A DNA stretch of 64,000 nt from a virus. Positions 156 through 15,899 of the stretch are shown here, piece after piece; positions within the stretch are counted from its first letter, which is position 1, and the number at the start of each line of letters is the position of its first letter. The translations under genes were made by a program, and so were the position numbers. The stretch is from IMG/VR virus record IMGVR_UViG_3300043436_002865, positions 3,932 through 67,931 of that record; one strand, written 5' to 3'. Under the pieces are notes generated by a model. It saw nothing but the letters and a program-made list of their open reading frames with translations. It had not been told where the DNA came from and searched no databases.

Positions 156-343
156 TGCGTATCCATAAGGTCAATATCAGTAATCAAATCGAAAAGGTCT
201 TCTAAAGTTGTACATACAATCTTTTTGTTGACCCAATCGTCTGTGTCAGTTCTTCCACTAATATTTACAATATACCCATTTTCACAAAGAGTTATCTCAA
301 AGCTGTCATTAACAGTTTTAAATTTTTCTAGAAAAACTTTCAT
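152..343 (-). CDS. hypothetical protein
   Basis: 63 aa ORF with start/stop overlaps to both neighbours. Confidence 0.75.
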   Translation of the reverse strand: MKVFLEKFKTVNDSFEITLCENGYIVNISGRTDTDDWVNKKIVCTTLEDLFDLITDIDLMDTQ

Positions 344-585
344 TAGTTGGCCTCTTTAATGTTTGTTTCGGGTTTAAACCAGTCTTTACCGTTAACCCGA
401 ATAAACGGCTTATTAGTTTCACTCTTGTTAGGGTTTGCAATAGCAACCATAGTACGCTTTCCAGCACGGAAAGCTTTAAGCTGATTCATCAGCTTATCTG
501 CCGGGTTTTTAGTAGCAGTTTTAACCGACGAGCTACGCAAGCCCATCGACACTTTACCCTTAGACTTACCGCCTTTTTTAGCCAT
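343..585 (-). CDS. small basic hypothetical protein
   Basis: 80 aa Lys-rich ORF with AAGGAA SD and upstream promoter. Confidence 0.8.
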   Translation of the reverse strand: MAKKGGKSKGKVSMGLRSSSVKTATKNPADKLMNQLKAFRAGKRTMVAIANPNKSETNKPFIRVNGKDWFKPETNIKEAN

Positions 586-628
586 AGTATAATTCCTTTT
601 TATTTGGTGTGTTGTTTGTTTATAATTA

Positions 629-657
629 AATATACTCTATAAAACACGCGGCAGCAA
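629..657 (-). promoter_or_regulatory. sigma70-type promoter
   Basis: TTGCTG-N17-TATATT. Confidence 0.55.
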
Positions 658-874
658 CTAAAAATTTACATAAAGTAGTGCAAGCCTAGCAGTCTTTTTA
701 CAATTTCAGAAATCGGATTATCTAGATTAGGTTTGGGAGCTAATTTTGTACTAATAGGCTCTTGTACGCTTAGGTATATTCTATATCCTATAGCTCTATG
801 AATTTTCTTTAAATATTTTTTAAGCACAAAATACACTGTAACTACCATTCTTAAAATAAAATTATTTTTGCTAC

Positions 875-903
875 TTGCCATTTTTATCAACCTGCGGTAT
901 AAT
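875..903 (+). promoter_or_regulatory. strong sigma70-type promoter of the curli/cyclase operon; transcript probably leaderless
   Basis: TTGCCA-N17-TATAAT; ATG lies 8 nt after the -10 box with no SD. Confidence 0.75.
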
Positions 904-911
904 AGACTTAT

Positions 912-1412
912 ATGAAACATACTATGTTATTATTAAGTTTATTGCTGCTATTAGGTTGCAATAAGTTTGAAATCACAAAAAAAGAAGCTACGCCAGTAAC
1001 TGAAAGTCTTATATACTCTGCTTGGAGTTACATAGGTAAAAGCGAAAGATATGATAGACGCTATTTGTCGGAACTACTAACAGTAGATCCGGTAACTACT
1101 GAGTGGTGTGCTGCTTTTGTTAATTCAGTACTAAAAGAAAATAACATACCTACTAGCGACCATAATCTATTAGCTAAAAGTTTCTTAGAGTGGGGAACTA
1201 AAGTTCCTAAAGAAGAAATACAAAAAGGCGATATAGTTATATTTCCAAGAGGGAATATGAGCTGGCAGGGGCATGTAGGTTTTTACGTTGGTTCTACTAA
1301 AATAGGAGTAACAGAATTTTACTCTATACTCGGAGGAAACCAAGAGAATAAAGTTAGTATAGACTTATATAGAGCCAGTCGTGCTATAGGTATCAGACGT
1401 TATATACCTTAA
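912..1412 (+). CDS. TIGR02594-type NlpC/P60/CHAP-like peptidoglycan hydrolase, lipoprotein
   Basis: WCAAFV, GDIVIFPRG, GHVGF and LGGNQ motifs; lipobox LLGC. Confidence 0.8.
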   Translation: MKHTMLLLSLLLLLGCNKFEITKKEATPVTESLIYSAWSYIGKSERYDRRYLSELLTVDPVTTEWCAAFVNSVLKENNIPTSDHNLLAKSFLEWGTKVPKEEIQKGDIVIFPRGNMSWQGHVGFYVGSTKIGVTEFYSILGGNQENKVSIDLYRASRAIGIRRYIP

Positions 1413-1453
1413 CAAAAATATAAGCAAATGTCAAGTTTAAAAAGGATTTATAC

Positions 1454-1732
1454 ATGGATTTTCTAAATTTAGTAACAGAAGTAGGATTTCCTATAGCTTC
1501 TTCATTAGCTGGTGGGTTTTTCGTATTCTTAACACTTAGATTTATTCTTGATGGCGTGCTTGGCAGTATTAAAACTCAGCGATCATTTGTAATAGCTTTA
1601 GATAATAGAGTAAAGACTATGAATAATGAACTAGTGAGAATTGACGTACTTATATGTAACGCTTTTAATGTTAGACCAGACTTAGATAGAATTGCAAGAG
1701 CTGATGGCCAGAAAGATGCCAGAAAAGATTAA
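1454..1732 (+). CDS. small single-pass membrane protein (GFPI motif plus coiled coil)
   Basis: VGFPIA TM segment, then DNRVKTMNNELVRID; paralogous to 3886..4209. Confidence 0.75.
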   Translation: MDFLNLVTEVGFPIASSLAGGFFVFLTLRFILDGVLGSIKTQRSFVIALDNRVKTMNNELVRIDVLICNAFNVRPDLDRIARADGQKDARKD

Positions 1733-1751
1733 AACTAATAAGGAGTAGTCT

Positions 1752-2093
1752 ATGGATTTTCTTATAGGACTAGCACTAACTGCTCATTTAGGGTTTGGAA
1801 ATAATGTTAATGATTTTCATCCTACGTTGCAGTTACAAAATAATTCTTTTATAGCAGGAGCATTTTATAATAGTGAGTCTAATGCTAGTTTATATGCTGG
1901 ATTTATACGGGATATAGGTAAGATAGATATTGAATTTGGACTAGCTACAGGATACTCTACGAGTTCTGTAGTGCCTTTTGTAAGAGGCGTTTATAATGTA
2001 AATGATAATATTAATGTATTTGTGGTGCCCGCACCAAGAAAGGACGGTAATTTAGGAATAGTACTAGGTACCCAGATACACTGGAGAAATTAA
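1752..2093 (+). CDS. small outer-membrane beta-barrel-like protein
   Basis: Signal-like N-terminus, alternating beta-strand pattern, GAFYNS and GLATGY motifs; AGGAG SD. Confidence 0.55.
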   Translation: MDFLIGLALTAHLGFGNNVNDFHPTLQLQNNSFIAGAFYNSESNASLYAGFIRDIGKIDIEFGLATGYSTSSVVPFVRGVYNVNDNINVFVVPAPRKDGNLGIVLGTQIHWRN

Positions 2094-3869
2094 GTGAATA
2101 AAATAATACTAAACAGTTTAGCAGTTTTAATGATTACTACTGCGGCTCTTGCAGATAGTTCTAGTTTGCAAGGTTCTGGAATGGGTCTACTAGAAAATCA
2201 ATGGGTAAAAGCAGGAATAAATAAAGACTCGGGAACCTTTGGGTCTGGAGGAAATACTTCTCCTGGATTGTTATTTGACCCAACAGGTACTGGAACATTT
2301 AATGCTGGTTATGACTACCTAACTCCAGGTGCTCCTTTTGACGGTCAGTCACTAAAAATTGATGGTACAAACTATACCAATAATAATGGTGGAGGAAGTA
2401 CTATAGCTGCAACCGATACTTTAGTAGATGGTACAGATAGTTTAACTTGGACTGGCTCAGTAGCTGGATGGATTATTGAAAATATATTTACACTTGGCGA
2501 CGATAAACCCTACGTTGATGTAACTACTAGAATTACGGCTGGCAGTGCAGCTACAGACGTGTGGTATTCTAAATTTATAGATCCAGATTCTCAAGGTATG
2601 CCCGGAGATAGTTCTGCTACCGATAACGTATTAGGTTATGGTACTATTCCTATTGATAATGTTGCTTTTTCTGAAGCTACAGTATCAAGATATGCTCTTG
2701 GTTTATACTCTACCGATTCTTATGTTTCTGCGGGTATAAATAATTGGAGTTCTCAAGCAGACTCTTATACTAATGCAGATATATATGGCAGCGGTGCTAC
2801 ATATGGTAATGGTGACGACACTATAGGACTAAGCTGGTATTGGTCTGGAGTATCTGTTGGAGATATTCTTGAAGCTAATTATGCTTATATATTTGGCCCT
2901 AGTTCTTTTGCCGCTCTAACTAGTGCAATTTCTGGCGGAGCTGGTGGTGGTGTTGATGTTACTGGAGGAGCAGGAGTTACTGATATTGGTTCTGCTACAG
3001 ATGCAGCTGCAGGTGGCGGTAGTACTCCAGTTATTACTACTGCGACTATTGTAAACTCAGCTCTACCAGTACTAACAGCTAGTATAACAAGTCATACTTC
3101 TAGCGTAGCTGACGACGTTCAAACTATCTCTAGAGCACTTACCACAACTACAACTACTCCTATGGTAACAGTTACTTATACTGATGGAGTCGAAACTTCT
3201 AGAGTAACTACAACTAGCGTAATTAGCACTGTAGTAACTAATCCAGGTGCTTTTACTGGTAGAGTAGATCAAGTTAAAATACTATCCCTAGATAATCAAA
3301 AACTACGTTTTAAGGCAGGTATTACTGGTGTATATAATGAAGCTATGTACGTAGGCTTAGGAAAAGATTTCGATAGCGGACTGAACTTAGCTTTTGGATT
3401 TGTTAAAAAGGACGGCGACAAAAAGATTGGTCTATCTGTAAACAGCAACGGTTTTAGTTTAGGAGTTGCTAAAGTTATGGCTAATCACGAATACTCTAGA
3501 ACTATAGGTGATTTTACTAATGCAGGAAGCACCTCTGAAGATGGTTATGAGTTACTAGTAGATTATAAAAGCGATAAAAAAGGGTTTTCTCCTATTTTAG
3601 GGCTTACTATAGGATCTACAACTGTAAGCAGTTGGGCTGAAAGCGGTGCTATTCAATCTGCATTATCTTATGATGAAATTAAACAATCATATAACATATT
3701 AACTCTAGGTGCTGGATATAATACTGATAATTTTGGTATTTATACTTCTTACAACACAGCTTCAGAACTTGATGTTTCACTAACCGTAAAAGATATAGAA
3801 GTTGGCATGGTTAGAGACATGGATAATGACACTAGTGCTTTTGCGCTAGGATACTCTTTTAGCTTTTAA
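2094..3869 (+). CDS. autotransporter-like outer-membrane protein
   Basis: Signal peptide, Gly/Asp/Thr-rich passenger, Gly- and Thr-rich linker, C-terminal amphipathic strands ending YSFSF. Confidence 0.7.
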   Translation: MNKIILNSLAVLMITTAALADSSSLQGSGMGLLENQWVKAGINKDSGTFGSGGNTSPGLLFDPTGTGTFNAGYDYLTPGAPFDGQSLKIDGTNYTNNNGGGSTIAATDTLVDGTDSLTWTGSVAGWIIENIFTLGDDKPYVDVTTRITAGSAATDVWYSKFIDPDSQGMPGDSSATDNVLGYGTIPIDNVAFSEATVSRYALGLYSTDSYVSAGINNWSSQADSYTNADIYGSGATYGNGDDTIGLSWYWSGVSVGDILEANYAYIFGPSSFAALTSAISGGAGGGVDVTGGAGVTDIGSATDAAAGGGSTPVITTATIVNSALPVLTASITSHTSSVADDVQTISRALTTTTTTPMVTVTYTDGVETSRVTTTSVISTVVTNPGAFTGRVDQVKILSLDNQKLRFKAGITGVYNEAMYVGLGKDFDSGLNLAFGFVKKDGDKKIGLSVNSNGFSLGVAKVMANHEYSRTIGDFTNAGSTSEDGYELLVDYKSDKKGFSPILGLTIGSTTVSSWAESGAIQSALSYDEIKQSYNILTLGAGYNTDNFGIYTSYNTASELDVSLTVKDIEVGMVRDMDNDTSAFALGYSFSF

Positions 3870-3885
3870 TTATTAAGGAATAAAT

Positions 3886-4209
3886 ATGGATCTAACAAAC
3901 ATTGCTTCAGCAATTAATCAATACGGATTTCCGATTATAGCAGCTTTTGGGCTAGGATACTTTATATACTATATATGGACTTGGGTTACCCAAGAAGTTG
4001 ATCCGGTTGTAAATGAATCTCATATGACACTAATAGCTCTTATAGACAGAATACGAATGCTAGATAATGATATTATAAGATTAAATACAAAACTAAACAT
4101 GATTCTACAAGAACAAGAAAGAAAAAATAGAGGAGCAAACAATGAGAATACTGCTGATAGCGATACTAGCACTAGCCCCATTCAAAGCAATAGCTCAAGA
4201 AGCTTATAA
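3886..4209 (+). CDS. small single-pass membrane protein (GFPI motif plus coiled coil)
   Basis: YGFPIIAA TM segment, then IDRIRMLDNDIIRLN; paralogous to 1454..1732. Confidence 0.75.
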   Translation: MDLTNIASAINQYGFPIIAAFGLGYFIYYIWTWVTQEVDPVVNESHMTLIALIDRIRMLDNDIIRLNTKLNMILQEQERKNRGANNENTADSDTSTSPIQSNSSRSL

Positions 4210-4579
4210 CTTTAATAATCCTTCTTTTTCTGGAGTCGGATATTCTTCTCATGTGTTAACGCTAGAGCAGATGACACAGAACGCCGAACAAAAAGAAAAA
4301 GATAGAATACAGGCAGAAATAGACGAAGCTCTAAGAGACGAAGAAAACTCTAACTTAAATAGATTTATAAACAACTTTGAATCTAGAGTTTATGCTCAAT
4401 TATCTAAAAAACTAGTAGAAACACTATTTAGTGAAGATGCTACTTCTTATGGATCTTTTGAACTGGCTGGTAATACTGTAGAATATGTAAACGATGGAAT
4501 TGATGTTAGTCTAACTATAATAGGTCCAGACGGTAGTACTACAAGTATAACTATACCTATAGGGAGTTTAGGCTTATGA
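4142..4579 (+). CDS. csgF: curli assembly protein CsgF-like
   Basis: Signal peptide followed by YNFNNPSFSG (CsgF FxNPxFxG N-terminus); directly upstream of csgG. Confidence 0.8.
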   Translation: MRILLIAILALAPFKAIAQEAYNFNNPSFSGVGYSSHVLTLEQMTQNAEQKEKDRIQAEIDEALRDEENSNLNRFINNFESRVYAQLSKKLVETLFSEDATSYGSFELAGNTVEYVNDGIDVSLTIIGPDGSTTSITIPIGSLGL

Positions 4580-5307
4580 GGCTATACTTACTACCATTAC
4601 TTCTACTAGCATCTTGTTCTACTGCTACAGTACAACCGCTGTTAGAGCCAAAAATAGTTGAAGATATTCAATATAGTAGTCCAGCTCCTAAAAAAGGTCC
4701 TATAATAGTAGGAGTATACTCTTATACAGATATGACAGGGCAGAGACAAGGAACTGGGCTATCTTCTGCAGTTACTCAGGGGGCTGAAAACTATTTAATA
4801 GATGGTCTAAAAGACTATAGTAATGGAACATGGTTTAGAGTTCTAGAACGAAAAAATATAGAGAATATTATTAAAGAAAGACAGATAATAAGATCAGCTA
4901 TGGATGAAGTTAATCCTGAGTCTGAGCTTCCTTCTATGTTATACGCAGGTATGTTAGTAGAAGGTGGTATAGTTGGTTATGATGCAAATACTTTATCAGG
5001 CGGCGATGGTGTAAGAGTTTTTGGAATAGGTGTTTCTGAAAAATATACTAAGCACACGGTTACTGTAGCTATAAGAGCTATATCAGTAGCTACTTCAGAA
5101 GTACTAGCATCTATTCTGGTAGAGAAAGAAATATTAAGTACTACAGACAACTTAACAACCACTAAATTTTTTGACTTAGATAGAAAGGTAATAGAGATAG
5201 AATCAGGTACTACTACTAACGAAGCTTCTAACTACGCAGTACGCTCAGCTGTTAACAAAGCTGTTCACGAACTAGTATTAGAAGGTTTAAGCAATAAATT
5301 GTGGTAG
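4576..5307 (+). CDS. csgG: curli secretion channel CsgG/HfaB family lipoprotein
   Basis: Lipobox LASC; VYSYTDMTGQR, SSAVTQG, WFRVLER, ERQII and EGGIVGYD motifs. Confidence 0.92.
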   Translation: MRLYLLPLLLLASCSTATVQPLLEPKIVEDIQYSSPAPKKGPIIVGVYSYTDMTGQRQGTGLSSAVTQGAENYLIDGLKDYSNGTWFRVLERKNIENIIKERQIIRSAMDEVNPESELPSMLYAGMLVEGGIVGYDANTLSGGDGVRVFGIGVSEKYTKHTVTVAIRAISVATSEVLASILVEKEILSTTDNLTTTKFFDLDRKVIEIESGTTTNEASNYAVRSAVNKAVHELVLEGLSNKLW

Positions 5308-5318
5308 GGAGAAACAAA

Positions 5319-6002
5319 ATGAAAAGCTTATTATGGGCTATACCCTTAATAATAATAGCTTCAAGTGTGTACGCAGATCAAAGCGTATACATTGATCAAG
5401 TAAGTGGTGATAACCTAATATTTGATGTTATTCAAAGAAACGGAGATGGTAACAAAGTTGGAGATTCATCTGCTCCATCTCCATATTTAGTGATAGACGG
5501 TTCTAATCAGACAATAACTGTTTTACAAGATGGTTCTAGCAATAAGCTAACAGGCACTATAGAGGCTACCACTCTATCTTTTAACTTAACTAATACTGGT
5601 GACTCTAATTTAATGGATTTTATAATAGCTAACGGTGACAATAGCGATTATTTGATCTCTTATACCGGTAGTGGAAATGAGCTAAGCTGGACTTCAGGCT
5701 CTTCTGTTTCTTCATCCTACGCAGATATAGATTATGATATTATAGGAGACTACAATATATTTACTATAGGTGTAGAATCTGATGGAGCTAAACAAGACTT
5801 AACTTACTCTGGAGACGAAAACGAAGTTACTATAACTCAAATAGGATACGGCTCTGCAGTAGGTGGGCATATTATTATACATAACTTAGTTGGAGATTCT
5901 AACATAGTTGATATTACGCAAGAAACTACTCTAGCAGCCTCGGTGATTAACCTTGATACGAATGGCAGTAATCAAACTATTACTATTACTCAGTCTGACT
6001 AA
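5319..6002 (+). CDS. curlin-like (CsgA/CsgB-type) beta-solenoid repeat protein
   Basis: Signal peptide; recurring GxxN turns (GDGN, GSSN, GDSN, GSGN, GDYN, GDEN, GDSN) with Q-containing strands; follows csgG; start moved to ATG 5319 (GGAG SD). Confidence 0.7.
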   Translation: MKSLLWAIPLIIIASSVYADQSVYIDQVSGDNLIFDVIQRNGDGNKVGDSSAPSPYLVIDGSNQTITVLQDGSSNKLTGTIEATTLSFNLTNTGDSNLMDFIIANGDNSDYLISYTGSGNELSWTSGSSVSSSYADIDYDIIGDYNIFTIGVESDGAKQDLTYSGDENEVTITQIGYGSAVGGHIIIHNLVGDSNIVDITQETTLAASVINLDTNGSNQTITITQSD

Positions 6003-6993
6003 CTCTGCTTTTGCTAATATAGGATCTGTTACTGAGTATAAAGGTTCTGGCGTATTAGAGAGAGAAGCAGATATTTTAGAAACTACTTTAGATTTACCGG
6101 TAGAAACCAATGATTTTGTTGTTACAGCTAAAGGAGTTGTGGGAATAACTTTTGAAGATGACACTCAAGTAAGGGTGGGAGAACATAGTGAGCTATTAAT
6201 AGACGATTTTGTTTATGATCCTAATAGCTCTTCTGGATCTTTAGGGTTAAAAGTAGCTATGGGTACTGTTAAATATGCTTCTGGTAGTATAGCTCATAAC
6301 AACCCTGATACTGTAGATATACAAACTCCGTCAGCTACTATAGCTGTTAGAGGAACTGCATTTTCTATGACTGTAGACGAACTAGGTAGTTCTTTAGTTA
6401 TACTGCTACCTAACTTTGATGGTAGCGTAGGAGAAATTATTGTAGGCACAGATGCTGGTCAAGTAATACTTAATAAAGCATTTCAAGCTACTTCAGTATC
6501 TGGAAGAGATGCTAAACCTAAACAGCCTGTGATACTAGCTATAGATGAAAGCATGATAAATAACTTATTAATTATTGCACCGCCTAAAAGAGTAGTTAAA
6601 GAGTTAGTAGAAGAAAATAAAAATAATCCGTTAGCTATAAATTTTTTAGACTATGACGAATTAGGTGAGGATCTATTAGCTTCTACAGATTTAGCATTTG
6701 ATACTTTAACTATAAACGAATTAATAACAAATCTACTAGGTAATATGTTAGCTAATGTTTTTAATTCAGATATTGACGGAAGAATAGCAGGTTTTAATAA
6801 TGAGACAGGCGTATACACTTTTATAGACGATTCTAGGGCTAGAGTAGCAAGATATTCTGCTAATAGCTATGTTGATGTATTTTTTACTCAAGAATCGGGT
6901 ATAAATATGTCATTATTTCAAACGGATGCAGAAGTATATATAAATACACTAGATCCAGGATCAGATAACTTACTAAGGATTAATCAACAATGA
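5962..6993 (+). CDS. FecR-domain periplasmic protein
   Basis: ITFEDDTQVRVGEHSEL and IQTPSATIAVRGTAF FecR motifs; signal peptide. Confidence 0.85.
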   Translation: MAVIKLLLLLSLTNSAFANIGSVTEYKGSGVLEREADILETTLDLPVETNDFVVTAKGVVGITFEDDTQVRVGEHSELLIDDFVYDPNSSSGSLGLKVAMGTVKYASGSIAHNNPDTVDIQTPSATIAVRGTAFSMTVDELGSSLVILLPNFDGSVGEIIVGTDAGQVILNKAFQATSVSGRDAKPKQPVILAIDESMINNLLIIAPPKRVVKELVEENKNNPLAINFLDYDELGEDLLASTDLAFDTLTINELITNLLGNMLANVFNSDIDGRIAGFNNETGVYTFIDDSRARVARYSANSYVDVFFTQESGINMSLFQTDAEVYINTLDPGSDNLLRINQQ

Positions 6994-9023
6994 AATTTTT
7001 ATTATCTCCGCTACAAGCCTGCGTAACTTCGTTACTGTTAATATGGGCTATAATGTCTAACACTACACTATTGCAAAACATAGAACTAAAGTTTTATGAC
7101 CAGCTTATAGTGTCAGAAGTTATTGAGTCAAGCGATGCAGTGCTAATAGATATAGGTGAAGCATCTCTAGAACAATACGGTCAATATCCTTTTGAACGTA
7201 ATGTTTATGGAGAACTAATTAGTAAACTTAGAGATGCAAATGCTGGTGTGATAGTATTTAATATGTCATTCCCAGAAGAGGATAGAACAGGCAATGATGA
7301 GTCTTTTAAAGCTATGCTGGGAAATGGTGTTGTTATCTCACACTTCCCTTCGACACAAACTGACGGGCGAGCAGCCTATACTACTGGTATTGTGGAAGTT
7401 GGTCCACGTGCTCTTCCTTATGTTCCTAGCTATAGCGGCATTGCTGCTAATATTAGCGAGTATGAAGATAGGGCTAGCGGAATTGGTATTGCAAACACTA
7501 TACCAGAGATTGATGGAGTTGTACGTCGTCTTCCAATGATATCTGCAGTAGACGAAACACTATATCCGTCTATTGTTCTTGAGATTTTAAAAGTTTATAT
7601 GAACACTAATACTTACCAAGTAAAATCTAATGATCTTGGTGTAGAAGCTGTACGAGTAAAAGGCTTTCCCACTATAAACACCGATGGTAACGCTAGAATA
7701 TGGATAAATCCTAATTATAGTTTTAAGCGATACGAAATGACTGAAGAGTTTCCAGATTTACAAGGAGCTACAGTTTTTATAGGAGTTACAGCTGAAGGTA
7801 TATCAAATCCTGTACCAACAGCTACAGGAGCTGCCTTTGGTCATGAAGTTACTGCTAAAGCATTTACATCAGTAGTTAATTCTTATAACATATCGTCTCC
7901 AGTATTTAGCGATGCTATAAAAATTCTTACAATGATAGCACTAAGTATTGCTATAATTAGTTTTTCATATATTAAATATGGCTGGGTTGCTTCAATTATC
8001 GCAGTAGGCTATGCTATAGTATTTCCGTTTCAACAGTTCTATTTATACGCAGAGCTATATAACACAGCACTACCAGCTATAATGAGCATACTAATATTTG
8101 CACATGTGTATGGGCTAAAGTATGGTCAAGAGTATTTTGCTAAACTTCGTATTAAAAAGCAGTTTGGAGGGTATGCGTCTCCTGAAGTTGTTGAGATATT
8201 ACAACGCAATCCTGATCTTATTAAACACGGAATGAAACGAGAAGTTTCAATCTGCTTTAGCGATCTTCGCGGATTCACACCGCTTGGTGAATCGTTCGGG
8301 GATGATGTAAAAGGTCTAACAGAAGTAATGAACGGATATATGGATGCTATCACTCAGCCTGTTTTAGATGCCAAAGGTATGATAATTAAGTATATAGGCG
8401 ACGCTTCTATGCACATTCACAATGCACCTATTGAAGATCCTAACCATGCTAAATCAGCTGTTCAAACAGGTCTAAACATGTTAAAAGCGGTAGAAACTTT
8501 CAATGAAAAGCTAGTTGCAAGCGGTCGTCCTCGTGTAGGTATGGGTGCAGGTATTAATACTGGACTAGGTTATATTGGAGAAATGGGTAGTACTGCTAGA
8601 CACTCTTACGATGTTCTTGGTGATGCGGTTTCAACTACTGCACGACTAGAAGGACAATGTAAAGCTTATGGAGTACTACTGATAATTGGTCCTAGCACGT
8701 ACGAGCAAACTAAAGATGACTTCTTTTATCTCAAACTTGATGATCTTGCTGTAAAAGGTAAGAGCGTTGGACTAGAAATATATACTGTGTTACAAGATCC
8801 CAAGCCTGAGTGGGCTAAGCTAAAAGAAATTCATACTGAAATGCTAAAACTATACAGACAAAAACAATTTAAAAAAGCAATAATTTTATGTGAGTCACTA
8901 AAAGGTAATTTTAATAATCAAATGAATGGATACTATGATATGTGGATTGAGCGTTGTAATTTTATGGAAACTCAACCACTACCAGATAATTGGGATGGTA
9001 TTTTTAGAGCTACCACTAAATGA
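6990..9023 (+). CDS. CHASE2-domain class III adenylate/guanylate cyclase
   Basis: CHASE2 motifs (IDIGEASL..GQYPF.R, DGVVRRLP), TM helices, cyclase motifs FSDLRGFT, IKYIGDA, GINTG, YDVLGDAVSTTARLE. Confidence 0.93.
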   Translation: MKFLLSPLQACVTSLLLIWAIMSNTTLLQNIELKFYDQLIVSEVIESSDAVLIDIGEASLEQYGQYPFERNVYGELISKLRDANAGVIVFNMSFPEEDRTGNDESFKAMLGNGVVISHFPSTQTDGRAAYTTGIVEVGPRALPYVPSYSGIAANISEYEDRASGIGIANTIPEIDGVVRRLPMISAVDETLYPSIVLEILKVYMNTNTYQVKSNDLGVEAVRVKGFPTINTDGNARIWINPNYSFKRYEMTEEFPDLQGATVFIGVTAEGISNPVPTATGAAFGHEVTAKAFTSVVNSYNISSPVFSDAIKILTMIALSIAIISFSYIKYGWVASIIAVGYAIVFPFQQFYLYAELYNTALPAIMSILIFAHVYGLKYGQEYFAKLRIKKQFGGYASPEVVEILQRNPDLIKHGMKREVSICFSDLRGFTPLGESFGDDVKGLTEVMNGYMDAITQPVLDAKGMIIKYIGDASMHIHNAPIEDPNHAKSAVQTGLNMLKAVETFNEKLVASGRPRVGMGAGINTGLGYIGEMGSTARHSYDVLGDAVSTTARLEGQCKAYGVLLIIGPSTYEQTKDDFFYLKLDDLAVKGKSVGLEIYTVLQDPKPEWAKLKEIHTEMLKLYRQKQFKKAIILCESLKGNFNNQMNGYYDMWIERCNFMETQPLPDNWDGIFRATTK

Positions 9024-9024
9024 A

Positions 9025-9056
9025 AATAACGCCACCTTTTGGGTGGCGTTTTTTAT
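9025..9056. terminator. bidirectional rho-independent terminator
   Basis: AACGCCACC-TTTTG-GGTGGCGTT followed by a T-tract, between convergent genes. Confidence 0.85.
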
Positions 9057-9247
9057 TAACTAATTAAAAACTGTAGATCTTTTAGGTCGTCTCTCAAGAC
9101 AAAATCGTTTGGTAAACTTACAGCTTCACCATTTTTAATTTTATCACACAGCTTACTAGCTTCTGATAAACTAATTGAGGTGTGCTTTGTTATAACTTTA
9201 GGAGCAGTTTTAAAATCTGCTCCTGCTTTATATCCAATAACTAACAT
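9056..9247 (-). CDS. hypothetical protein (weak resemblance to the L7/L12 C-terminal fold)
   Basis: 63 aa, AGGAG SD; KVITKHTSISLSEASKLCD pattern. Confidence 0.6.
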   Translation of the reverse strand: MLVIGYKAGADFKTAPKVITKHTSISLSEASKLCDKIKNGEAVSLPNDFVLRDDLKDLQFLIS

Positions 9248-9271
9248 CTTATTCTCCTAACAGAGTCTAAG

Positions 9272-9691
9272 CTATATTGGACCTAATATTTCATAACCGC
9301 TTATATTTTCTTTGTATGGATGATGACCACCTAGATAATAGTATTTATAACCTAGTGCTTTATACCATGCACATTCATGAAAATTAGCTTTCCAACCTAA
9401 CTGTAAACTCGGATTTTTATAATTCCATGCAAATTGTATTCCTCGAACGCTTATCTCATCTAAATGAGAAATTATAGAAAACGCTACTAGATCTGAGTTA
9501 TCAAAATATCCAATAACGTCGCTGTTGAGAATTTCATAGTTAAAAAGAGGTTCTACAGAAGAAAATCTTTTATACCTACAATAATCTGTATATATAATGT
9601 TTAATGCTTCTATATTAGGATTAATTAATACAGAAGCATTATCATCTAGTTTGTAGTTTGTTTTTGTTAAATCTATTCTACCATACTTCAT
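9272..9691 (-). CDS. arginyl-tRNA-protein transferase C-terminal-like (GNAT fold) protein
   Basis: LVAFS, FAWNYKNPSLQLG and KALGYKYYYLG resemble the ATE_C/Bpt C-terminal pattern. Confidence 0.55.
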   Translation of the reverse strand: MKYGRIDLTKTNYKLDDNASVLINPNIEALNIIYTDYCRYKRFSSVEPLFNYEILNSDVIGYFDNSDLVAFSIISHLDEISVRGIQFAWNYKNPSLQLGWKANFHECAWYKALGYKYYYLGGHHPYKENISGYEILGPI

Positions 9692-10379: not shown

Positions 10380-10453
10380 TGGTGCCGATAGAGAGAATCG
10401 AACTCCCGTCAGCTGATTACTAATCAGCTGCTAAACCACTCAGCTATACCGGC
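10380..10453 (-). tRNA. tRNA-Thr(AGT)
   Basis: Cloverleaf; anticodon arm GCTGA-TTAGTAA-TCAGC; encoded CCA. Confidence 0.9.
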
Positions 10454-10460
10454 ATTAACT

Positions 10461-10536
10461 TGGCTGGGAAGGGTGGATTCGAACCACCAACCAACGGATT
10501 CAAAGTCCGCTACTCTACCAATTGAGCTACTTCCCA
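10461..10536 (-). tRNA. tRNA-Gln(TTG)
   Basis: GCGGA-CTTTGAA-TCCGT; encoded CCA. Confidence 0.95.
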
Positions 10537-10557
10537 ATAAACTTTTGCGCATTAAAT

Positions 10558-10681
10558 AAGGCAGGTGCGGTATCTGCTAGTTTATGAAACTAGGTGCCCA
10601 TGCTCCTTTTACAGCGTTGCGCGGGTGCTGCTTCAAACCTATGCCTATGATCACTTGGCGTGTTTGAACTTTCCTTACCTT
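10558..10681 (-). ncRNA. candidate structured ncRNA between tRNAs
   Basis: Closing stem AAGGTAAGG/CCTGCCTT plus stems TTCAAAC/GTTTGAA, GCAGC/GCTGT and CTAGTTT/AAACTAG. Confidence 0.55.
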
Positions 10682-10686
10682 AATTA

Positions 10687-10774
10687 TGGCGGTGAGGGTG
10701 GGATTCGAACCCACGGTACGTTTCCGTACGCTGGTTTTCTAGACCAGTTCCTTAAACCACTCGGACACCTAACC
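10687..10774 (-). tRNA. tRNA-Ser(AGA)
   Basis: CTGGT-CTAGAAA-ACCAG, long variable arm, G73, encoded CCA. Confidence 0.9.
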
Positions 10775-10781
10775 TAAGTAT

Positions 10782-11066
10782 TTACTTGCTATTTAATTTA
10801 TTTGTTAAGCTACTAATAGTATTTAGTAGTCTTGTGTTATTACAAGCTAGTGCAAAGTTTTTTACTTGTAAATTGATAATACTTGATAAGTAAATAATAT
10901 CACGAGAATCAGCAGGAGTATTCATGTAATTCTTACACACAGCTCCTGCAACTACTTTATATAGATGCTCTTCGTCTATTTCTAACATTCCAAAGTCGAA
11001 GTATTCATCGCCGTCAGCAACTTTTGCCAATTCTACTAATTGGTCTAAAGTAATTTGCTTGTTCAA
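10782..11066 (-). CDS. hypothetical protein
   Basis: 94 aa, TTG start with AGGAG SD. Confidence 0.7.
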   Translation of the reverse strand: MNKQITLDQLVELAKVADGDEYFDFGMLEIDEEHLYKVVAGAVCKNYMNTPADSRDIIYLSSIINLQVKNFALACNNTRLLNTISSLTNKLNSK

Positions 11067-11082
11067 ATATTATCTCCTAATA

Positions 11083-11709
11083 CTACTGAGTAGAATATTT
11101 TAAAAAATTCTCTCTGTGTCTTCTGTAGTATAATAATGCTTGATTATGATAAGCTAGTGTAGCACCTCTTTTACGCATTTGCTGCCACAGATGCCAATCT
11201 TCATTAGGTTGATTACCGCTAAATGTTCTAGCTTCATAACCTATTTCTTGACCTAGTTTTGTTCTATACAACATAGACCCATGATGAGCTGCTGTTCTAG
11301 TCCAATATAAATCACCGTTATTACAACTCACTTCAGGAGCTTCTAAACTAGGAGGCAATTTACCTTTAAGTTCTCCAGTAACCATTATATCATAAGTAAC
11401 AATATCTGTAACAGGAGGACTTAAAACTTCTATAGCATCCGACCTAAACCAGTTATCAGCTCCTATAAACATAACATATTCAGAGCGCACTCTCATAAGC
11501 ATATCTTGAAAATTGCTTACAGTACCTAAGTTTTTATCTCTAAAAATATACTCTACTTCAGGGTATAAGCTAGGCAAATGAGTACAATCGCCAACACCAT
11601 CATCAACAAACATTATGTGAGCTGGTTGAACAGTCTGACTTAAAATAGACTCAATGCAGTGGGCTGCTAAATGTCCATACTTATAAGAAGCTACTACTAC
11701 AGTAATCAT
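11083..11709 (-). CDS. glycosyltransferase family 2
   Basis: TVVVASY, CIESILSQT, FVDDG, NEDW and YYRRH motifs. Confidence 0.85.
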   Translation of the reverse strand: MITVVVASYKYGHLAAHCIESILSQTVQPAHIMFVDDGVGDCTHLPSLYPEVEYIFRDKNLGTVSNFQDMLMRVRSEYVMFIGADNWFRSDAIEVLSPPVTDIVTYDIMVTGELKGKLPPSLEAPEVSCNNGDLYWTRTAAHHGSMLYRTKLGQEIGYEARTFSGNQPNEDWHLWQQMRKRGATLAYHNQALLYYRRHRENFLKYSTQ

Positions 11710-12428
11710 ACTAATTGACCTATATTTATTTTGGGTACTATTGATCCATTTACTAAATAATCAGGATACCCTATTACAGACTTAGCTCTGCAAAACCCAT
11801 TCATATAAGTCATTCTGTTAGAATTAGAAGTATTTTGTTCGCTTCCATGAACAATATTTACAGACCAAATTAGTACATCTCCAGCTTTAGCTTTATATTT
11901 AGTGCCAGTTAAATTGTTTCTCTCAAATACTCTTAAGTTAGGGGGAGAAGAAAAATTATCCCACTTATGAGAGCCTTCAATAAATTCTATTGCCCCGCTG
12001 TCTTCTGTTATGTCATCTATAGCAATTATAGTTTGAAAATAGTCTTCTGCTACTGTATCTTTGAAATTATTAGATTCTCTAAACATGGAATCTCTATGCC
12101 AAGCAAATTGATCTCCATCTCCCGATTCTCTAAAATAAATTTGATTATTAATTTGCTTTACATCATTACCTATAAATTGCTTAACTAATTTAATCAATCT
12201 ACTATCAATTCTAATTGAATTTATATATTCATTAGACAATGCTGGAAAGAAAACTAAAGATCTTTTATTATTTTTGTACTCTGCAGGAGCATGATTATAT
12301 CCAGAATCTGATATATCTTTGTCTACAATAGAATATGCTTCTTTTTTAATATTTAAGCATTCTTCTTTTGTAAAAACATTAGGAATTAATATAACTCCTT
12401 TATCTAAGTATTCTACTATTTTATCCAT
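11706..12428 (-). CDS. PhyH-family Fe(II)/2-oxoglutarate dioxygenase
   Basis: WHRD, IEGSHKW, GDVLIW...VHGS..N...R. Confidence 0.9.
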   Translation of the reverse strand: MDKIVEYLDKGVILIPNVFTKEECLNIKKEAYSIVDKDISDSGYNHAPAEYKNNKRSLVFFPALSNEYINSIRIDSRLIKLVKQFIGNDVKQINNQIYFRESGDGDQFAWHRDSMFRESNNFKDTVAEDYFQTIIAIDDITEDSGAIEFIEGSHKWDNFSSPPNLRVFERNNLTGTKYKAKAGDVLIWSVNIVHGSEQNTSNSNRMTYMNGFCRAKSVIGYPDYLVNGSIVPKINIGQLV

Positions 12429-12940
12429 GATATATAGCTCCTATTTATTTTATACTGCCAGTCTTTTGTAGAAGCATCCCAAGTTCCTTGATGAACGCTC
12501 CAAGCACGCTCGTATCCTGCATCTTTTACTGCTTGCACAACAGTATCATTAAATGAGCCATATGGATAAGCAAAGTATTTACAATCAAAAGGAGCTTTTA
12601 GTTCTTGCTCTAATTGTGCAATAGATATTTGGGTTAAGTCGGGATGGCTCCAAGTATGCCAACCTAATTCAAAGTTATAGAGTTCGCAAAGCTCCTGAAC
12701 TTGTTCTAGAGTGCAGTAACGTTCTAAAGCAGGTACATATTGTAAATCAAATGAGTTATCTTTACCTAGATAATTACCCATAATAAACATAATACCAGAT
12801 TTGTTGGCTAACACATCTTGATTTTCATATACATTTAAGTATATACCATCAAAACCTATTTCATCTGTGCAAGCTAGAATTTCTTCTCTAGTATGGTAAT
12901 TAGAATGTTTATGATTTCCGATATTATGAGCTAACTTCAT
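12416..12940 (-). CDS. NodB-type polysaccharide deacetylase
   Basis: FDG, ELGWHTWSHPDL and FAYPYG motifs. Confidence 0.85.
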   Translation of the reverse strand: MKLAHNIGNHKHSNYHTREEILACTDEIGFDGIYLNVYENQDVLANKSGIMFIMGNYLGKDNSFDLQYVPALERYCTLEQVQELCELYNFELGWHTWSHPDLTQISIAQLEQELKAPFDCKYFAYPYGSFNDTVVQAVKDAGYERAWSVHQGTWDASTKDWQYKINRSYISWIK

Positions 12941-13409
12941 ATACCAATACCTGTTGTCCTAAAATATCTCGATAATTAAATTCAACAGTCTTCACTAACG
13001 TACCGAAGCTAAAAGGCACGAACCATTGTTTGATTCCTGCTACTAAAACTATTTTGCTAGCTGACTCATTAATCCAATCTATTATTTGCTTACTGTTGTA
13101 TTCTTTGTACAAAGTGCCAGTAGTCATAACTAAATCGTATTTGCCTTCAGGACTTAGCACTCTTTGTACATTAGCGGGAAGTCTAGATGCAGCTAAGTCC
13201 GATATTTCAATACCATGTATAGTTTTTGCTGCTATATCTTTAGTTATAAAACCTTCGCCACAACCTATATCTAGAGCTTTATCAAAAGGGCCAAATTCTT
13301 CTATAATGCTTAATAGCACTTGTTTTCTATATTCATCATCTGGATTACCTTTGTAACCCCACGGATCGCTGTTTTTATAGAACTCTTCAAGCCATTCTTT
13401 GTGTGACAT
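12924..13409 (-). CDS. NodS-like SAM-dependent methyltransferase
   Basis: N-terminal DPWGY, ALDIGCGEG, GIEIS. Confidence 0.8.
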   Translation of the reverse strand: MSHKEWLEEFYKNSDPWGYKGNPDDEYRKQVLLSIIEEFGPFDKALDIGCGEGFITKDIAAKTIHGIEISDLAASRLPANVQRVLSPEGKYDLVMTTGTLYKEYNSKQIIDWINESASKIVLVAGIKQWFVPFSFGTLVKTVEFNYRDILGQQVLVYEVSS

Positions 13410-13425
13410 AATTCCTCAATATAGT

Positions 13426-13510
13426 TGGTGCGGGTAGAGGGACTTGAACCCCCACGCCTTGCGGCGCTAGAACCTAAATCTAGTGCGTCTGCCAATTTCG
13501 CCATACCCGC
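13426..13510 (-). tRNA. tRNA-Leu(TAG)
   Basis: CTAGA-TTTAGGT-TCTAG, long variable arm, encoded CCA. Confidence 0.95.
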
Positions 13511-13513
13511 ATA

Positions 13514-13613
13514 AGCGCTCGTCTCTCCGAGCTGTCACACCGATCCATAGAGCCGGAGCCAAGGATCACTTCACGCTAGTGTAACGTGGGTTAGACTCAT
13601 ATCACGTACTATC
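13514..13613 (-). ncRNA. candidate structured ncRNA
   Basis: Stems ACGTG/CACGT and GATCC/GGATC, terminal GCTCG-GAGAGA-CGAGC hairpin; GC-rich and non-coding. Confidence 0.45.
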
Positions 13614-13627
13614 CACAAATTAATAAC

Positions 13628-13712
13628 TGGATGGTCTGTGGACCTCGATGATACTATCATAACCGCATGAACATGTAAGTTACCTTACTTGCTTGGTTGC
13701 AGTATCCATCCA
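13628..13712 (-). ncRNA. candidate structured ncRNA
   Basis: 7-bp closing stem TGGATGG/CCATCCA and internal GTAAG-GTAA-CTTAC hairpin. Confidence 0.45.
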
Positions 13713-13723
13713 AATAGTATATA

Positions 13724-14185
13724 TCAGCTTTCAATCCAAGTCTTTACTTTTTCGCAGTGAGCCTTCCAAGGTTCTGCGTCGTACTCATAACGCTTACGCT
13801 CGTTGTTCCACTTCTTGCTCAGTTTATCAGCAGCAGGTCCATACTTGTTTATCATCTCGCAAACACGAGGAAGTATATGAGCACGAAGTACAGATGTATC
13901 ATTGCACTTATTCTCAACAGACTTATATGATTTGCCAGCGAGATAAGCACGAGCAAGGAAGGTAGCACGATTCTCGTTACGAACATCCCAACGACGATGG
14001 CGATTGAGCGAATTATAACTAATAAACGCTTTATCATGCCAGCGTGGGTATATGTCGTTGTGTCCAGCTTCTCTATATTTGCTGAGAGACCACTGATGCT
14101 GCTTGAGTAGCTTGCGCTCTTCAAAACGAATGATACGAGCTTCTTCTGAAAGGTGCTTTGATTTGATTTTTAGTTCTATAGACAT
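13724..14185 (-). CDS. basic hypothetical protein downstream of the amber leader
   Basis: 153 aa, Arg/Lys-rich; AAGGAG SD partly inside a hairpin. Confidence 0.85.
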   Translation of the reverse strand: MSIELKIKSKHLSEEARIIRFEERKLLKQHQWSLSKYREAGHNDIYPRWHDKAFISYNSLNRHRRWDVRNENRATFLARAYLAGKSYKSVENKCNDTSVLRAHILPRVCEMINKYGPAADKLSKKWNNERKRYEYDAEPWKAHCEKVKTWIES

Positions 14186-14193
14186 TATTTTCT

Positions 14194-14237
14194 CCTTGAT
14201 TAAGTTAATATAAATTATAATTAAGCTGTAATCAAGG
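14194..14237 (-). promoter_or_regulatory. SD-sequestering hairpin
   Basis: CCTTGATTA (14237-14229) is a perfect complement of TAATCAAGG (14202-14194), which includes AAGG of the SD. Confidence 0.75.
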
Positions 14238-14276
14238 TTAAGGTGGCTTTTTTATCTACGAATGAAACTCTTTCAT
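14238..14276 (-). CDS. leader mini-ORF with in-frame amber: MKEFHS*IKKPP*
   Basis: AGGGAG SD 8 nt before ATG AAA GAG TTT CAT TCG TAG ATA AAA AAG CCA CCT TAA. Confidence 0.7.
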
Positions 14277-14298
14277 TTGTAAGTCTCCCTCTTTTTGT

Positions 14299-14373
14299 TG
14301 GTGGTCCTAACAGGAATTGAACCTGCATTTCAGCGTTTTAGAGGCGCGTGCATAGCCATCATGCTCTAGGACC
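14299..14373 (-). tRNA. amber suppressor tRNA (CTA), atypical
   Basis: Acceptor GGTCCTA/TAGGACC, A73, CCA; D stem GCAT/ATGC; anticodon loop CTCTAAA; T arm GCAGG-TTCAATT-CCTGT; imperfect anticodon stem. Confidence 0.8.
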
Positions 14374-14383
14374 AGATTTATAC

Positions 14384-14434
14384 AGGATCATCTTTTTGCT
14401 ACATCCAAGCTTTTTTAGTTGCTGAACTGATCCT
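14384..14434 (-). ncRNA. candidate small stem-loop RNA
   Basis: AGGATCA/TGATCCT stem enclosing GTTCAGCAAC, A-tracts and GCT-TGGATGT-AGC. Confidence 0.4.
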
Positions 14435-14436
14435 AA

Positions 14437-14712
14437 AATACGGGATGCCCTATAGCCACCGCTACGCAGAAACTATTTTATTTCTTTTCACACCGACATC
14501 CAATGTGAAGATAGACTATTACTAATTTCGAGTTAATTCTCGATCAGATAGATTTACAACAGCCTAAGTCCTCTATCTTATCATCCTGATACAGGATGAA
14601 TAAAACTAATACGGTTTTTATCTACATCTTACCCTTGGGCTAACTTTCATACCGCAACTTAATCGAGCCAAGCAGCTTGCCAGTAGTAGACCGGACTTAA
14701 CCGAAAACCGGT
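14437..14712 (-). ncRNA. one or two candidate structured RNAs
   Basis: Non-coding; stems CGGTTTT/AAAACCG, TCTAC/GTAGA, GATAGA/TCTATC, TCGAG/CTCGA, TTCACA/TGTGAA, TCATCCTG/CAGGATGA. Confidence 0.4.
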
Positions 14713-14716
14713 AAAT

Positions 14717-14791
14717 TGGAGCGGGTGAAGGGGATCGGACCCTCGACATTCTGCTTGGAAGGCAGACGCTCTACCACTGAGCTACACCCGC
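14717..14791 (-). tRNA. tRNA-Gly(TCC)
   Basis: TCTGC-CTTCCAA-GCAGA, U73, CCA; T-loop variant TCCGATC. Confidence 0.92.
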
Positions 14792-14797
14792 GTATTA

Positions 14798-14872
14798 TGG
14801 TGCGGAATGAGAGATTCGAACTCCCGACAATCTCGGTGTAAACGAGGGGCTCTACCACTGAGCTAATTCCGC
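14798..14872 (-). tRNA. tRNA-Val(TAC)
   Basis: CCTCG-TTTACAC-CGAGA; encoded CCA. Confidence 0.95.
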
Positions 14873-14877
14873 ATTAT

Positions 14878-15048
14878 TCAATAACTTGTATTTAACCAGG
14901 AAGCTAAGTATAACATACGTTCTTCTGGCGTTTTAGTTGGTTCAATACCTAAATCTTCAGGATCTTCACCTACAATAATAGCATAATAATTCTTAAAAGC
15001 TTGTTCTAGTTGAGCCAATGCTTTTTGTTCTTTTACTAAAAGAGCCAT
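14878..15048 (-). CDS. small hypothetical protein (56 aa)
   Basis: Manual translation MALLVKEQKALAQLEQAF...WLNTSY; AGGA SD. Confidence 0.6.
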   Translation of the reverse strand: MALLVKEQKALAQLEQAFKNYYAIIVGEDPEDLGIEPTKTPEERMLYLASWLNTSY

Positions 15049-15065
15049 AAACTATATCCTAATAA

Positions 15066-15157
15066 TGGCGGTGAGACAGGGATTCGAACCCTGGGTACCA
15101 TTTTACTGGTACGACGGTTTAGCAAACCGCTCCTTTCGGCCTCTCAGGCACCTCACC
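15066..15157 (-). tRNA. tRNA-Ser(GCT)
   Basis: GCGGT-TTGCTAA-ACCGT, long variable arm, encoded CCA. Confidence 0.95.
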
Positions 15158-15167
15158 AATACTATTT

Positions 15168-15196
15168 ATAATAACAAATAACAATTAAACTAGCAA
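15168..15196 (-). promoter_or_regulatory. sigma70-type promoter
   Basis: TTGCTA-N17-TATTAT just upstream of tRNA-Ser. Confidence 0.6.
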
Positions 15197-15204
15197 GCTA
15201 ATTT

Positions 15205-15726: not shown

Positions 15727-15899
15727 TATTTATTTCCTGTGTGTCTCTTTTTTACTCTTATAGCCGCTGCATAATGATCTGGACTCAATACTGATAGCAT
15801 ACTTAAACAAATTTGTTCTTCTTTAGAGTTGCGTGCTATTACAGCTTTAGCAAATCTTTTTAAATAACTGTCGAGTATGGGTTGTAATACTGATTTCAC
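15726..15899 (-). CDS. small hypothetical protein (57 aa)
   Basis: GTG start; stop overlaps the HNH start (TAATG). Confidence 0.5.
   Translation of the reverse strand: MKSVLQPILDSYLKRFAKAVIARNSKEEQICLSMLSVLSPDHYAAAIRVKKRHTGNK

Follow-up and report, generated by a model that had tools for sequence, protein, structure and literature searches.

The window analysed here, 64,000 nucleotides (nt) of viral DNA at positions 3,932 to 67,931 of the IMG/VR virus record IMGVR_UViG_3300043436_002865 (67,931 bases, estimated 62% complete), carries near its beginning a block of ten co-oriented open reading frames (ORFs) that spans 912-9023 on the + strand (Table 1; all positions are those of the window). 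This locus is, with near certainty, an intact copy of the published phage module that unites a viral curli apparatus (type VIII secretion system, T8SS) with a FecR-like protein and an adenylate cyclase. Two small genes matching phrog_18771, of the type labelled "histidine kinase" (HK) in the published module, precede csgF and are split here by two inserted genes; csgF and csgG are adjacent and overlap by 4 nt; a curlin-like gene follows csgG and is itself followed by the FecR gene; and the cyclase gene ends the region, as it does in the module of Wittmers et al. (2022, PMC9599517).

The block is compact, with intergenic gaps of -68 to +41 nt and four overlapping gene pairs; the ATG of the cyclase gene overlaps the FecR stop codon by 4 nt (ATGA), and both flanking neighbours of the block lie on the - strand. 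An initial annotation of this DNA had described one promoter, ten co-oriented and mostly abutting genes and one terminator, and each of these was recovered: the ten ORFs all lie on the + strand at the places given, the sigma-70-like promoter is the top match of the region, and the last gene is followed by a hairpin with a T run. Promoter-like sites as a whole are no more frequent than expected by chance (28 found versus 34.8 expected), and the leader would be very short, because the promoter ends 8 nt upstream of the first ATG. The ten genes are probably transcribed as a single unit by the host RNA polymerase. Read by eye, the translations include six products with Sec or lipoprotein signals, three membrane proteins and an ambiguous product of 113 amino acids (aa). 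Pfam matches back the labels CsgF, CsgG, FecR, CHASE2 and cyclase of the initial annotation, whereas its "small outer-membrane protein" and "autotransporter" are weaker assignments without a Pfam match.

Table 1. Features of the window, with positions, strand and supporting matches
Feature	Position	Strand	Evidence
Predicted sigma-70-like promoter	875-903	+	TTGCCA-17-TATAAT, 11/12 matches, top-scoring in 500-9400
NlpC/P60-CHAP type peptidoglycan hydrolase, lipoprotein signal	912-1412	+	NlpC_P60 2e-5, CHAP 1.7e-5 (Pfam); LLLLGC by reading
Small single-pass membrane protein a, GFPI motif then predicted coiled coil	1454-1732	+	phrog_18771 5.4e-28
113-aa orphan	1752-2093	+	phrog_3600 (PagP-like) 4.6e-8, C-terminal part of profile only
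591-aa exported protein, autotransporter-like architecture	2094-3869	+	AlphaFold2 (AF2) model, pLDDT 83.9
Small single-pass membrane protein b, paralogue of a	3886-4209	+	phrog_18771 2.1e-31
CsgF homologue, signal peptide	4142-4579	+	PF10614 1.1e-15; phrog_35372 1.7e-34
CsgG lipoprotein, outer-membrane channel family	4576-5307	+	PF03783 1.5e-42; lipobox LLASC by reading
Curlin-like secreted repeat protein	5301-6002	+	Likely start ATG 5319; Curlin_rpt 0.0052, below cut-off
Exported FecR-domain protein	5953-6993	+	Likely start ATG 5962; PF04773 3.5e-9
CHASE2 class III nucleotide cyclase	6990-9023	+	CHASE2 1.3e-36, Guanylate_cyc 6.5e-16 (Pfam)
Intrinsic-terminator-like hairpin	9028-9050	either	10-bp stem, 6 G-C pairs, T run
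NAD-dependent ligase	18783-20534		T5-like replication set
DnaB-like helicase	44766-46142		T5-like replication set
Family A polymerase	48332-50578		T5-like replication set
SbcC-like nuclease	56974-58803		T5-like replication set
Ribonucleotide reductase	58843-60966		T5-like replication set

As described by Wittmers et al., the whole region starts with one or two "histidine kinases", continues with CsgF, CsgG, CsgA/B and FecR, in many cases has a further CsgA/B, and includes an adenylate cyclase; it is carried by podoviruses and myoviruses, its transcripts are reported from metatranscriptomes, and every viral curli region has CsgF, CsgG and a curlin-like protein (PMC9599517). The presence of csgF and csgG in phages, which the initial annotation had mentioned, was described earlier still by Zaragoza-Solas et al. 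in 2020 (PMC7029224) and Buchholz et al. in 2022 (PMC9004378), in papers whose main texts contain 0 occurrences of "cyclase" and of "FecR"; the combination of genes, taken by that annotation to be new, is not, the core module being already published (PMC9599517). The pelagiphage viral T8SS region has the same families in the same order as the locus studied here. In Methylophilales phage Melnitz (MZ577097) and Pelagibacter phage HTVC008M (NC_020484), whose cyclases are 46% and 34% identical, respectively, to that of the window, the order is small protein a, small protein b, csgF, csgG, curlin-like, FecR, second curlin-like, cyclase.

What is new relative to the published module is the lineage, the habitat, the accessory genes and the active site, together with a lead concerning a plug-like FecR domain that resembles RIN, the plug of a bacterial adhesin. 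The nearest relatives of the DNA polymerase are T5-like phages, e.g. Salmonella phage rutana (Demerecviridae), at 40-42% identity, and the phage origin assumed in the initial annotation is borne out by these relatives and by the replication genes. Near-identical DNA occurs in 20 sequencing runs, of which 17 are not flagged as a possible source; these 17 are labelled lake water metagenome (14 runs), freshwater metagenome (one) and metagenome (two). From the polymerase relatives and the run labels we therefore assign this phage to the T5-like group and to lake water, and not to the marine T4-like phages, whereas the published module sits in T4-like myovirus or HTVC023P-type podovirus backbones and its core is abundant in ocean phages (PMC9599517); megablast matched the region to no isolated phage. 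The copy also differs in having an NlpC/P60 lipoprotein gene in front and the genes for a 113-aa orphan and a 591-aa protein between those of the two small membrane proteins; the main text of PMC9599517 does not contain the word "autotransporter", while its supplements, possibly listing accessory genes, lay outside that check. It does not have the second curlin gene between FecR and cyclase that is frequent, although not universal, in the published module, and its cyclase carries Asp541/Ser548, whereas most others carry Ser or Thr plus Asn. This copy is evidence that the module has spread to freshwater T5-like phages as well, and that it tolerates additional outer-membrane cargo. Judged by its gene content, the module would supply hosts that lack curli with a channel in the outer membrane, a fibre and an enzyme that makes a second messenger.

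The curli channel, its substrate and the cyclase

The CsgG of the window can be aligned with that of E. coli from end to end (8.6e-36); CsgF has no match in the PDB by sequence. The constriction loop of E. coli CsgG carries Tyr, Asn and Phe residues, whereas that of the phage CsgG has no aromatic residue and is 3 residues shorter; compared with the five alphaproteobacterial and most of the viral homologues aligned, it is 4 residues shorter. The curlin-like protein scores 9e-5 against the NCBIfam CsgA model, far below the cut-off, contains five N/S-x-h-x-h-x-Q strands with a best self-offset of 24, and is homologous to the products of the "curlin" genes of Melnitz and HTVC008M. CsgE (PF10627) was matched in none of five phage records (this one, Melnitz, HTVC008M and two complete IMG/VR relatives), with a positive E. 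coli control.

Among 301 alphaproteobacterial genomes sampled, 7 have a CsgG match, 5 of them strong (40-43% identity to the phage CsgG), and all five strong loci read csgF-csgG-curlin; two short loci, L171 and L172, matched none of the viral profiles. The phage system thus shares with bacterial curli the full-length homology of CsgG, a CsgF above the Pfam cut-off and, with Alphaproteobacteria, the csgF-csgG-curlin order; it differs in the absence of CsgE, a curlin that falls below cut-offs, the shorter constriction loop, and the addition of FecR, the cyclase and the a/b pair.

The cyclase has an N-terminal CHASE2 domain between membrane helices (the helices placed by reading) and a C-terminal cyclase domain, in which five of six catalytic residues are present: the metal-binding Asp425 and Asp471, Lys467, Asp541 and Arg552. 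In an alignment with solved cyclases and with 54 viral and 84 bacterial relatives, both metal Asp residues, the Lys and the Arg are retained, and across the 55 viral sequences (this one and its 54 relatives) they do not vary. Asp at the base-specifying position combined with Ser at the Asn position occurs here and in 9-10 of these 55, Melnitz among them, while the pattern in the other viral relatives, and in 83 of 84 bacterial ones, is Ser or Thr plus Asn; with the remainder conserved, this paired Asp/Ser change has the look of a modified active site more than of decay. The Lys467/Asp541 pair suggests, from sequence, that ATP is the substrate. PADLOC gave generic Pycsar-cyclase matches (1.7e-13) through the shared fold.

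The succession of CHASE2 and a class III cyclase domain is shared with CyaD1, CyaD2 and CyaK of Sinorhizobium meliloti, where a FecR-domain gene, smc02177, is reported together with cyaD1 (PMC5498481) and where signal input to a CHASE2 cyclase requires an outer-membrane-associated protein (PMC7529298). The phage system differs from that of S. meliloti, with its outer-membrane protein NsrA and its regulator Clr, in that the phage records contain no Clr/CRP-like receptor and in that CsgG/F or the fibre would take the place of NsrA as partner in the outer membrane. A complex prediction for CHASE2 residues 25-320 with FecR-like residues 23-346, both entered as alignments, gave no support (score 0.07, mark 0.32), a result that weighs neither for nor against such a complex.

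Linkage of the genes in viral and bacterial genomes

Viral relatives were collected by a scan of contigs with an alignment of FecR, which gave at least 524 relatives among at least 592 pattern matches; the best 80 by FecR similarity were kept, and because of this the viral set, to which all counts of viral loci refer, leans to close relatives. A scan of viral contigs with the single CsgG protein had given no matches, hence the alignment queries. Where at least 3 kb lie upstream of FecR (65 loci), CsgF is present in 64, CsgG in 65 and a curlin-like protein in 64; where at least 7 kb lie downstream (32 loci), the cyclase is present in every case and directly adjacent to FecR in 9; and the 16 loci whose flanks are long in both directions each have all six gene kinds. 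In eight loci (L004, L022, L024, L050, L078, L080, L084 and L085) the a/b pair is inverted downstream of the cyclase and is still linked. Protein a is kept beside the module in Melnitz, in HTVC008M and in the viral loci. The co-occurrence survey that the initial annotation had proposed thus finds the genes strongly co-conserved in viral loci and, since this linkage is strong, the objection that they are not co-conserved fails.

The bacterial comparison comprised the 80 loci with the closest cyclases, mostly from Alphaproteobacteria, these nearest bacterial relatives being 27-33% identical to the phage enzyme. A FecR-like ORF is present in 27 of the 80, or in 24 of the 48 that have at least 8 kb on both flanks, and lies within 3 kb in 17 of the 48; homologues of the hydrolase and of the 591-aa protein were found within 10 kb of none of the 80 cyclases. 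The bacterial Csg loci and cyclase loci examined are disjoint, and the phage module therefore joins two bacterial units that are not found together, which agrees with PMC9599517. One Elusimicrobia metagenome-assembled genome (G006, source of locus L141) has a CHASE2 cyclase with a FecR neighbour and also six CsgG-family matches, all on other contigs and none within 10 kb of the cyclase.

The FecR-like protein and readings of the module

The AF2 model of the FecR-like protein (pLDDT 72) comprises a beta domain at residues 24-182 (pLDDT near 87), a low-confidence stretch at about 200-275, and a small beta domain at 280-345. By Foldseek, the first domain resembles the periplasmic C-terminal signalling domain of PupR (6ovk_R, TMt 0.51), and its first 60-70 residues match RIN of MpIBP (5ix9; TMt 0.74, rmsd 1.1 over 62 columns, 29% identity, E 4.6e-3); 5ix9 is also the top PDB match of the viral FecR profile (E 0.05, query 18-87). 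RIN, the periplasmic N-terminal plug of the RTX adhesin MpIBP, is described as too large for the TolC-like pore and as holding the adhesin in that outer-membrane pore, and it served as a template for the retention module of LapA (PMC5550230; bioRxiv 10.1101/198937). The first FecR beta subdomain may thus be akin to the RIN of the LapA/MpIBP RTX adhesins, with a match by fold and a weak one by profile; the phage protein differs from RTX adhesins in having a Sec signal (by reading) and no RTX repeats, its pore would be CsgG and not a type I secretion system (T1SS), and no LapG/LapD-type partners were seen for it. With the FecA/FecR/FecI system it shares a periplasmic FecR-type beta domain, as the fold match to PupR indicates, whereas it has neither an anti-sigma domain nor a transmembrane helix, has a cleavable signal by reading, and contains FecR as its sole Pfam domain; no ECF sigma or other sigma-70-type factor (Sigma70_r2) was found in the record, itself estimated at 62% of the genome, nor any TonB-dependent transducer among the ten genes.

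Two bacterial FecR-like neighbours of the cyclase have 5ix9 as the top PDB match of their N-termini (1.6e-4 and 1.2e-3), a stronger match than that of the phage protein. Many of the bacterial neighbours are large, with 900 codons or more in 16 of 28 ORFs. Eleven of the large ones were scanned: cadherin-like, Big_9 or RTX repeats are present in 9, NIDO in one and FecR only in one. In Bradyrhizobium loci such as L125 (5685-9833) and L143 (3458-9775), ORFs of 1383-2106 codons begin with a FecR/RIN-like domain, continue with cadherin-like, Big_9 or RTX repeats, and end 121-315 nt upstream of a CHASE2 cyclase gene on the same strand; within 10 kb of the L125 pair there are no T1SS genes, the neighbours being unrelated ABC importers. 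Our literature search found no paper linking CHASE2 to RTX adhesins or FecR to retention modules.

A C-terminal N-x-h-x-h-x-Q strand, resembling those repeated in the curlin-like protein, is present in 57 of 74 distinct viral FecR ORFs, compared with 63 of 1563 among all ORFs of at least 100 aa. Between the two domains, residues 227-266 (window positions ~6631-6750) show leucines at every fifth residue within a stretch of pLDDT <50; 60 sequences show no variation at L232, L237, L252 and L257 and almost none at L227, L262 and L266.

The reading that we favour, although we hold it to be somewhat short of probable, is a sensory device that the phage would build across the envelope of the infected cell: a periplasmic FecR-like domain, tied to the CsgG/F pore or to the fibre, would be read by the CHASE2 cyclase. 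In such a device, CsgG and CsgF would form an outer-membrane channel that would export the curlin-like protein; the plug-like N-terminal domain of the FecR-like protein would stay folded in the periplasm, and its linker and small C-terminal domain, with the curlin-like end strand, would interact with the pore or the fibre; the cyclase, seated in the inner membrane, would read the state of that pore or fibre through its periplasmic CHASE2 domain and set the level of a cytoplasmic cyclic nucleotide, most likely cAMP; and a host receptor would read the nucleotide. Trans-envelope sensing as such is plausible, because the N-terminal FecR domain resembles RIN and bacterial relatives of the cyclase often stand beside repeat proteins headed by FecR/RIN; the signalling idea of the initial annotation gains indirect support from the FecR genes near bacterial CHASE2 cyclases and from the modelled plug-like domain.

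A more specific proposal, which we regard as unlikely in its full form, is that the phage FecR-like protein is a tether held in the pore: its RIN-like plug would remain in the periplasm, its linker would pass through CsgG/CsgF, and its C-terminal curlin-like strand would join the fibre outside. CHASE2 receptors in general would then read the periplasmic plugs of adhesins anchored at the surface, those of RTX adhesins in bacteria and those of curli-type fibres in phages, and pulling, loading or loss of the fibre would be turned into a cyclic-nucleotide signal. If this were true, an infected cell could inform its resident phage of contact, of aggregation or of the arrival of a second phage. The plug lead offers a concrete way for an outer-membrane structure to address CHASE2, a sensor without an agreed ligand, and, if correct, bears on bacterial adhesin signalling too.

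Several observations weigh against the sensory device. We infer every relay step from the surface to FecR and from FecR to the cyclase. The match to RIN spans a short stretch and, at the level of sequence, is weak for the phage protein; moreover, residues 227-266 may be a repeat fold or a binding region in place of a disordered linker, and the linker is possibly folded rather than a thread, because the low-confidence stretch holds the invariant leucines. In the cyclase, Ser548 occupies the position of the transition-state Asn (aligned to CyaB, 3r5g), and a change of the Asn at this position lowers catalysis in a mammalian cyclase. A cyclic-nucleotide-binding (cNMP) domain was matched in none of the five phage records, four of which are complete or near complete, so that a host receptor must be assumed. 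The bacterial loci offer no precedent for the joint system: FecR, the cyclase and the a/b pair are within 10 kb in none of the five alphaproteobacterial csgF-csgG-curlin loci; CsgG, CsgF, curlin and the a/b pair are within 10 kb in none of the 80 bacterial cyclase loci; and a FecR neighbour is found in only about half of the latter. Nor are FecR and the cyclase universal in viral curli regions (PMC9599517).

The chief alternative is that the fibre is the purpose of the module, which would lay a curli-like coat on infected cells, either to make them aggregate ("sibling capture") or to bar superinfection, while FecR and the cyclase would only tune expression or host physiology. This idea was put forward in PMC7029224 and PMC9599517, and we consider it rather unlikely: CsgF, CsgG and a curlin-like protein are the parts found in every viral curli region (PMC9599517) and in 64-65 of 65 loci here, and the nearest bacterial CsgG loci are plain csgF-csgG-curlin operons; on the other hand, no clumping was seen in Melnitz cultures by Buchholz et al. 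(PMC9004378), the curlin match lies below the Pfam and NCBIfam cut-offs, no encoded transcription factor was found that would couple cAMP to the module genes, and the tight linkage of FecR and cyclase in the examined loci would go unexplained. That same linkage bears on the suggestion, in our view improbable, that the two halves are merely neighbours in a shared variable region, the cyclase raising host cAMP for metabolic takeover and the curli genes acting independently of it. Although the bacterial homologues of the two halves never occur together in the examined loci, and other genes lie between FecR and cyclase in 23 of 32 viral loci, the order and linkage are kept across lineages as distant as myoviruses and podoviruses (PMC9599517) and the present T5-like phage; the linkage survives rearrangements of the a/b pair; and the FecR and cyclase genes of this copy overlap by 4 nt.

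Two further proposals concern the pore alone. For Melnitz, a role in the timing of lysis has been proposed (PMC9004378), with CsgG, alone or with CsgF, as a gated outer-membrane pore or pinholin-like device and the a/b proteins and the hydrolase as parts of the lysis machinery; the exported NlpC/P60 hydrolase at the start of this copy, its two small single-pass membrane proteins and the shortened constriction loop of CsgG would fit such a role. We nevertheless give it only a small chance, as a hydrolase homologue is near the module in just 2 of 80 loci, the promoter is of sigma-70 type and not marked as late, and it leaves the curlin, FecR and CHASE2 cyclase genes unexplained. The other proposal, raised in PMC7029224 and PMC9599517, is that the CsgG channel, ungated in the absence of CsgE from all five phage records, admits nutrients or cofactors to the periplasm of a starved host; this explains neither the conserved CsgF, curlin, FecR and cyclase nor the a/b pair, and we hold it to be very improbable.

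Accessory proteins and genomic surroundings

We regard proteins a and b as core parts of the module, and the hydrolase, the autotransporter-like protein and the orphan as accessory envelope parts of this copy. The a/b family comprises 973 representative clusters, and its top 150 members are all 67-209 aa long, without fusions. The published "histidine kinase" label is not supported for these proteins, because protein a contains no histidine; in addition, there is no Pfam match and the size of the top 150 relatives is as given above. An Atlas label for protein a, "MotA/TolQ/ExbB", and a YvrJ neighbour (0.88) were set aside as leads only.

The hydrolase matches NCBIfam TIGR02594 (1e-20, above cut-off) and a tail-lysozyme region, phrog_1259 (1.4e-23). 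Its homologue stands beside the module in only two viral loci, L080 and L084, directly before csgF; these are IMG/VR contigs of 338,435 and 90,241 bases, in which the second curlin-like gene and the cyclase gene lie several kb apart, with other genes between them. The 113-aa orphan is possibly a small outer-membrane beta protein; it has no Pfam or NCBIfam match and no clear signal peptide by reading, and its homologues form only three clusters, 73-100% identical and each 113 aa long.

In the AF2 model of the 591-aa protein, a signal is followed by a beta-sandwich head, long hairpins, a helix at 393-402 and 12 strands at 411-587, with Phe as the C-terminal residue. The model suggests the architecture of a type Va autotransporter, in which signal, passenger, linker helix, 12-strand barrel and terminal aromatic residue would follow one another. 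By Foldseek the head is matched to beta-sandwich domains of glycoside phosphorylases and of rhamnogalacturonan lyase (TMq 0.22-0.29), and the barrel matches are weak and generic; no Pfam match, PF03797 included, was obtained at E<=0.1. An Atlas neighbour cluster, 55% of whose members carry PF03797 (score 0.87), is a lead only. The protein has 1452 homologues at E<=0.001, and in L044, L085 and L086 these occupy three different positions within the module.

Upstream of the block, a dUTPase-like gene, a 2OG-oxygenase-like gene and others lie on the - strand; downstream, small ORFs are followed by the tRNA array. The first module gene is separated from a divergent gene at 343-585 (-) by a gap of 326 nt (586-911), in which no Rfam family was matched; the composition of an 84-aa ORF at 666-920 (-) is unusual, and this ORF is probably no gene. 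The T4 late-promoter motif TATAAATA is not enriched in the window (16 matches versus 15.5 expected) and does not occur upstream of the first module gene. Two copies at 6900-6907 and 6939-6946 (+), inside the end of the FecR gene and 50-90 nt upstream of the cyclase start, are recorded here without being relied on. Further downstream, a 558-aa ORF at 52339-54015 has no PHROG match.

The tRNA array at 10380-17173 comprises 13 tRNA genes according to ARAGORN. One of them, at 14299-14373 (-), has the anticodon CTA, which reads TAG, and is also recognised by the Rfam tRNA model (47 bits). TAG is the stop codon of 11 of 87 long ORFs, and recoding by this tRNA was considered and rejected: TAG readthrough joins no two ORFs of at least 100 codons, so that nothing points to recoding in the replication genes of this part of the genome, the window being without late genes. 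The Rfam model gives 12 genes versus the 13 of ARAGORN; a 91-nt tRNA-Ile (anticodon tat) at 16456-16546 (-), called by ARAGORN only, may bear an insert or be a false call.

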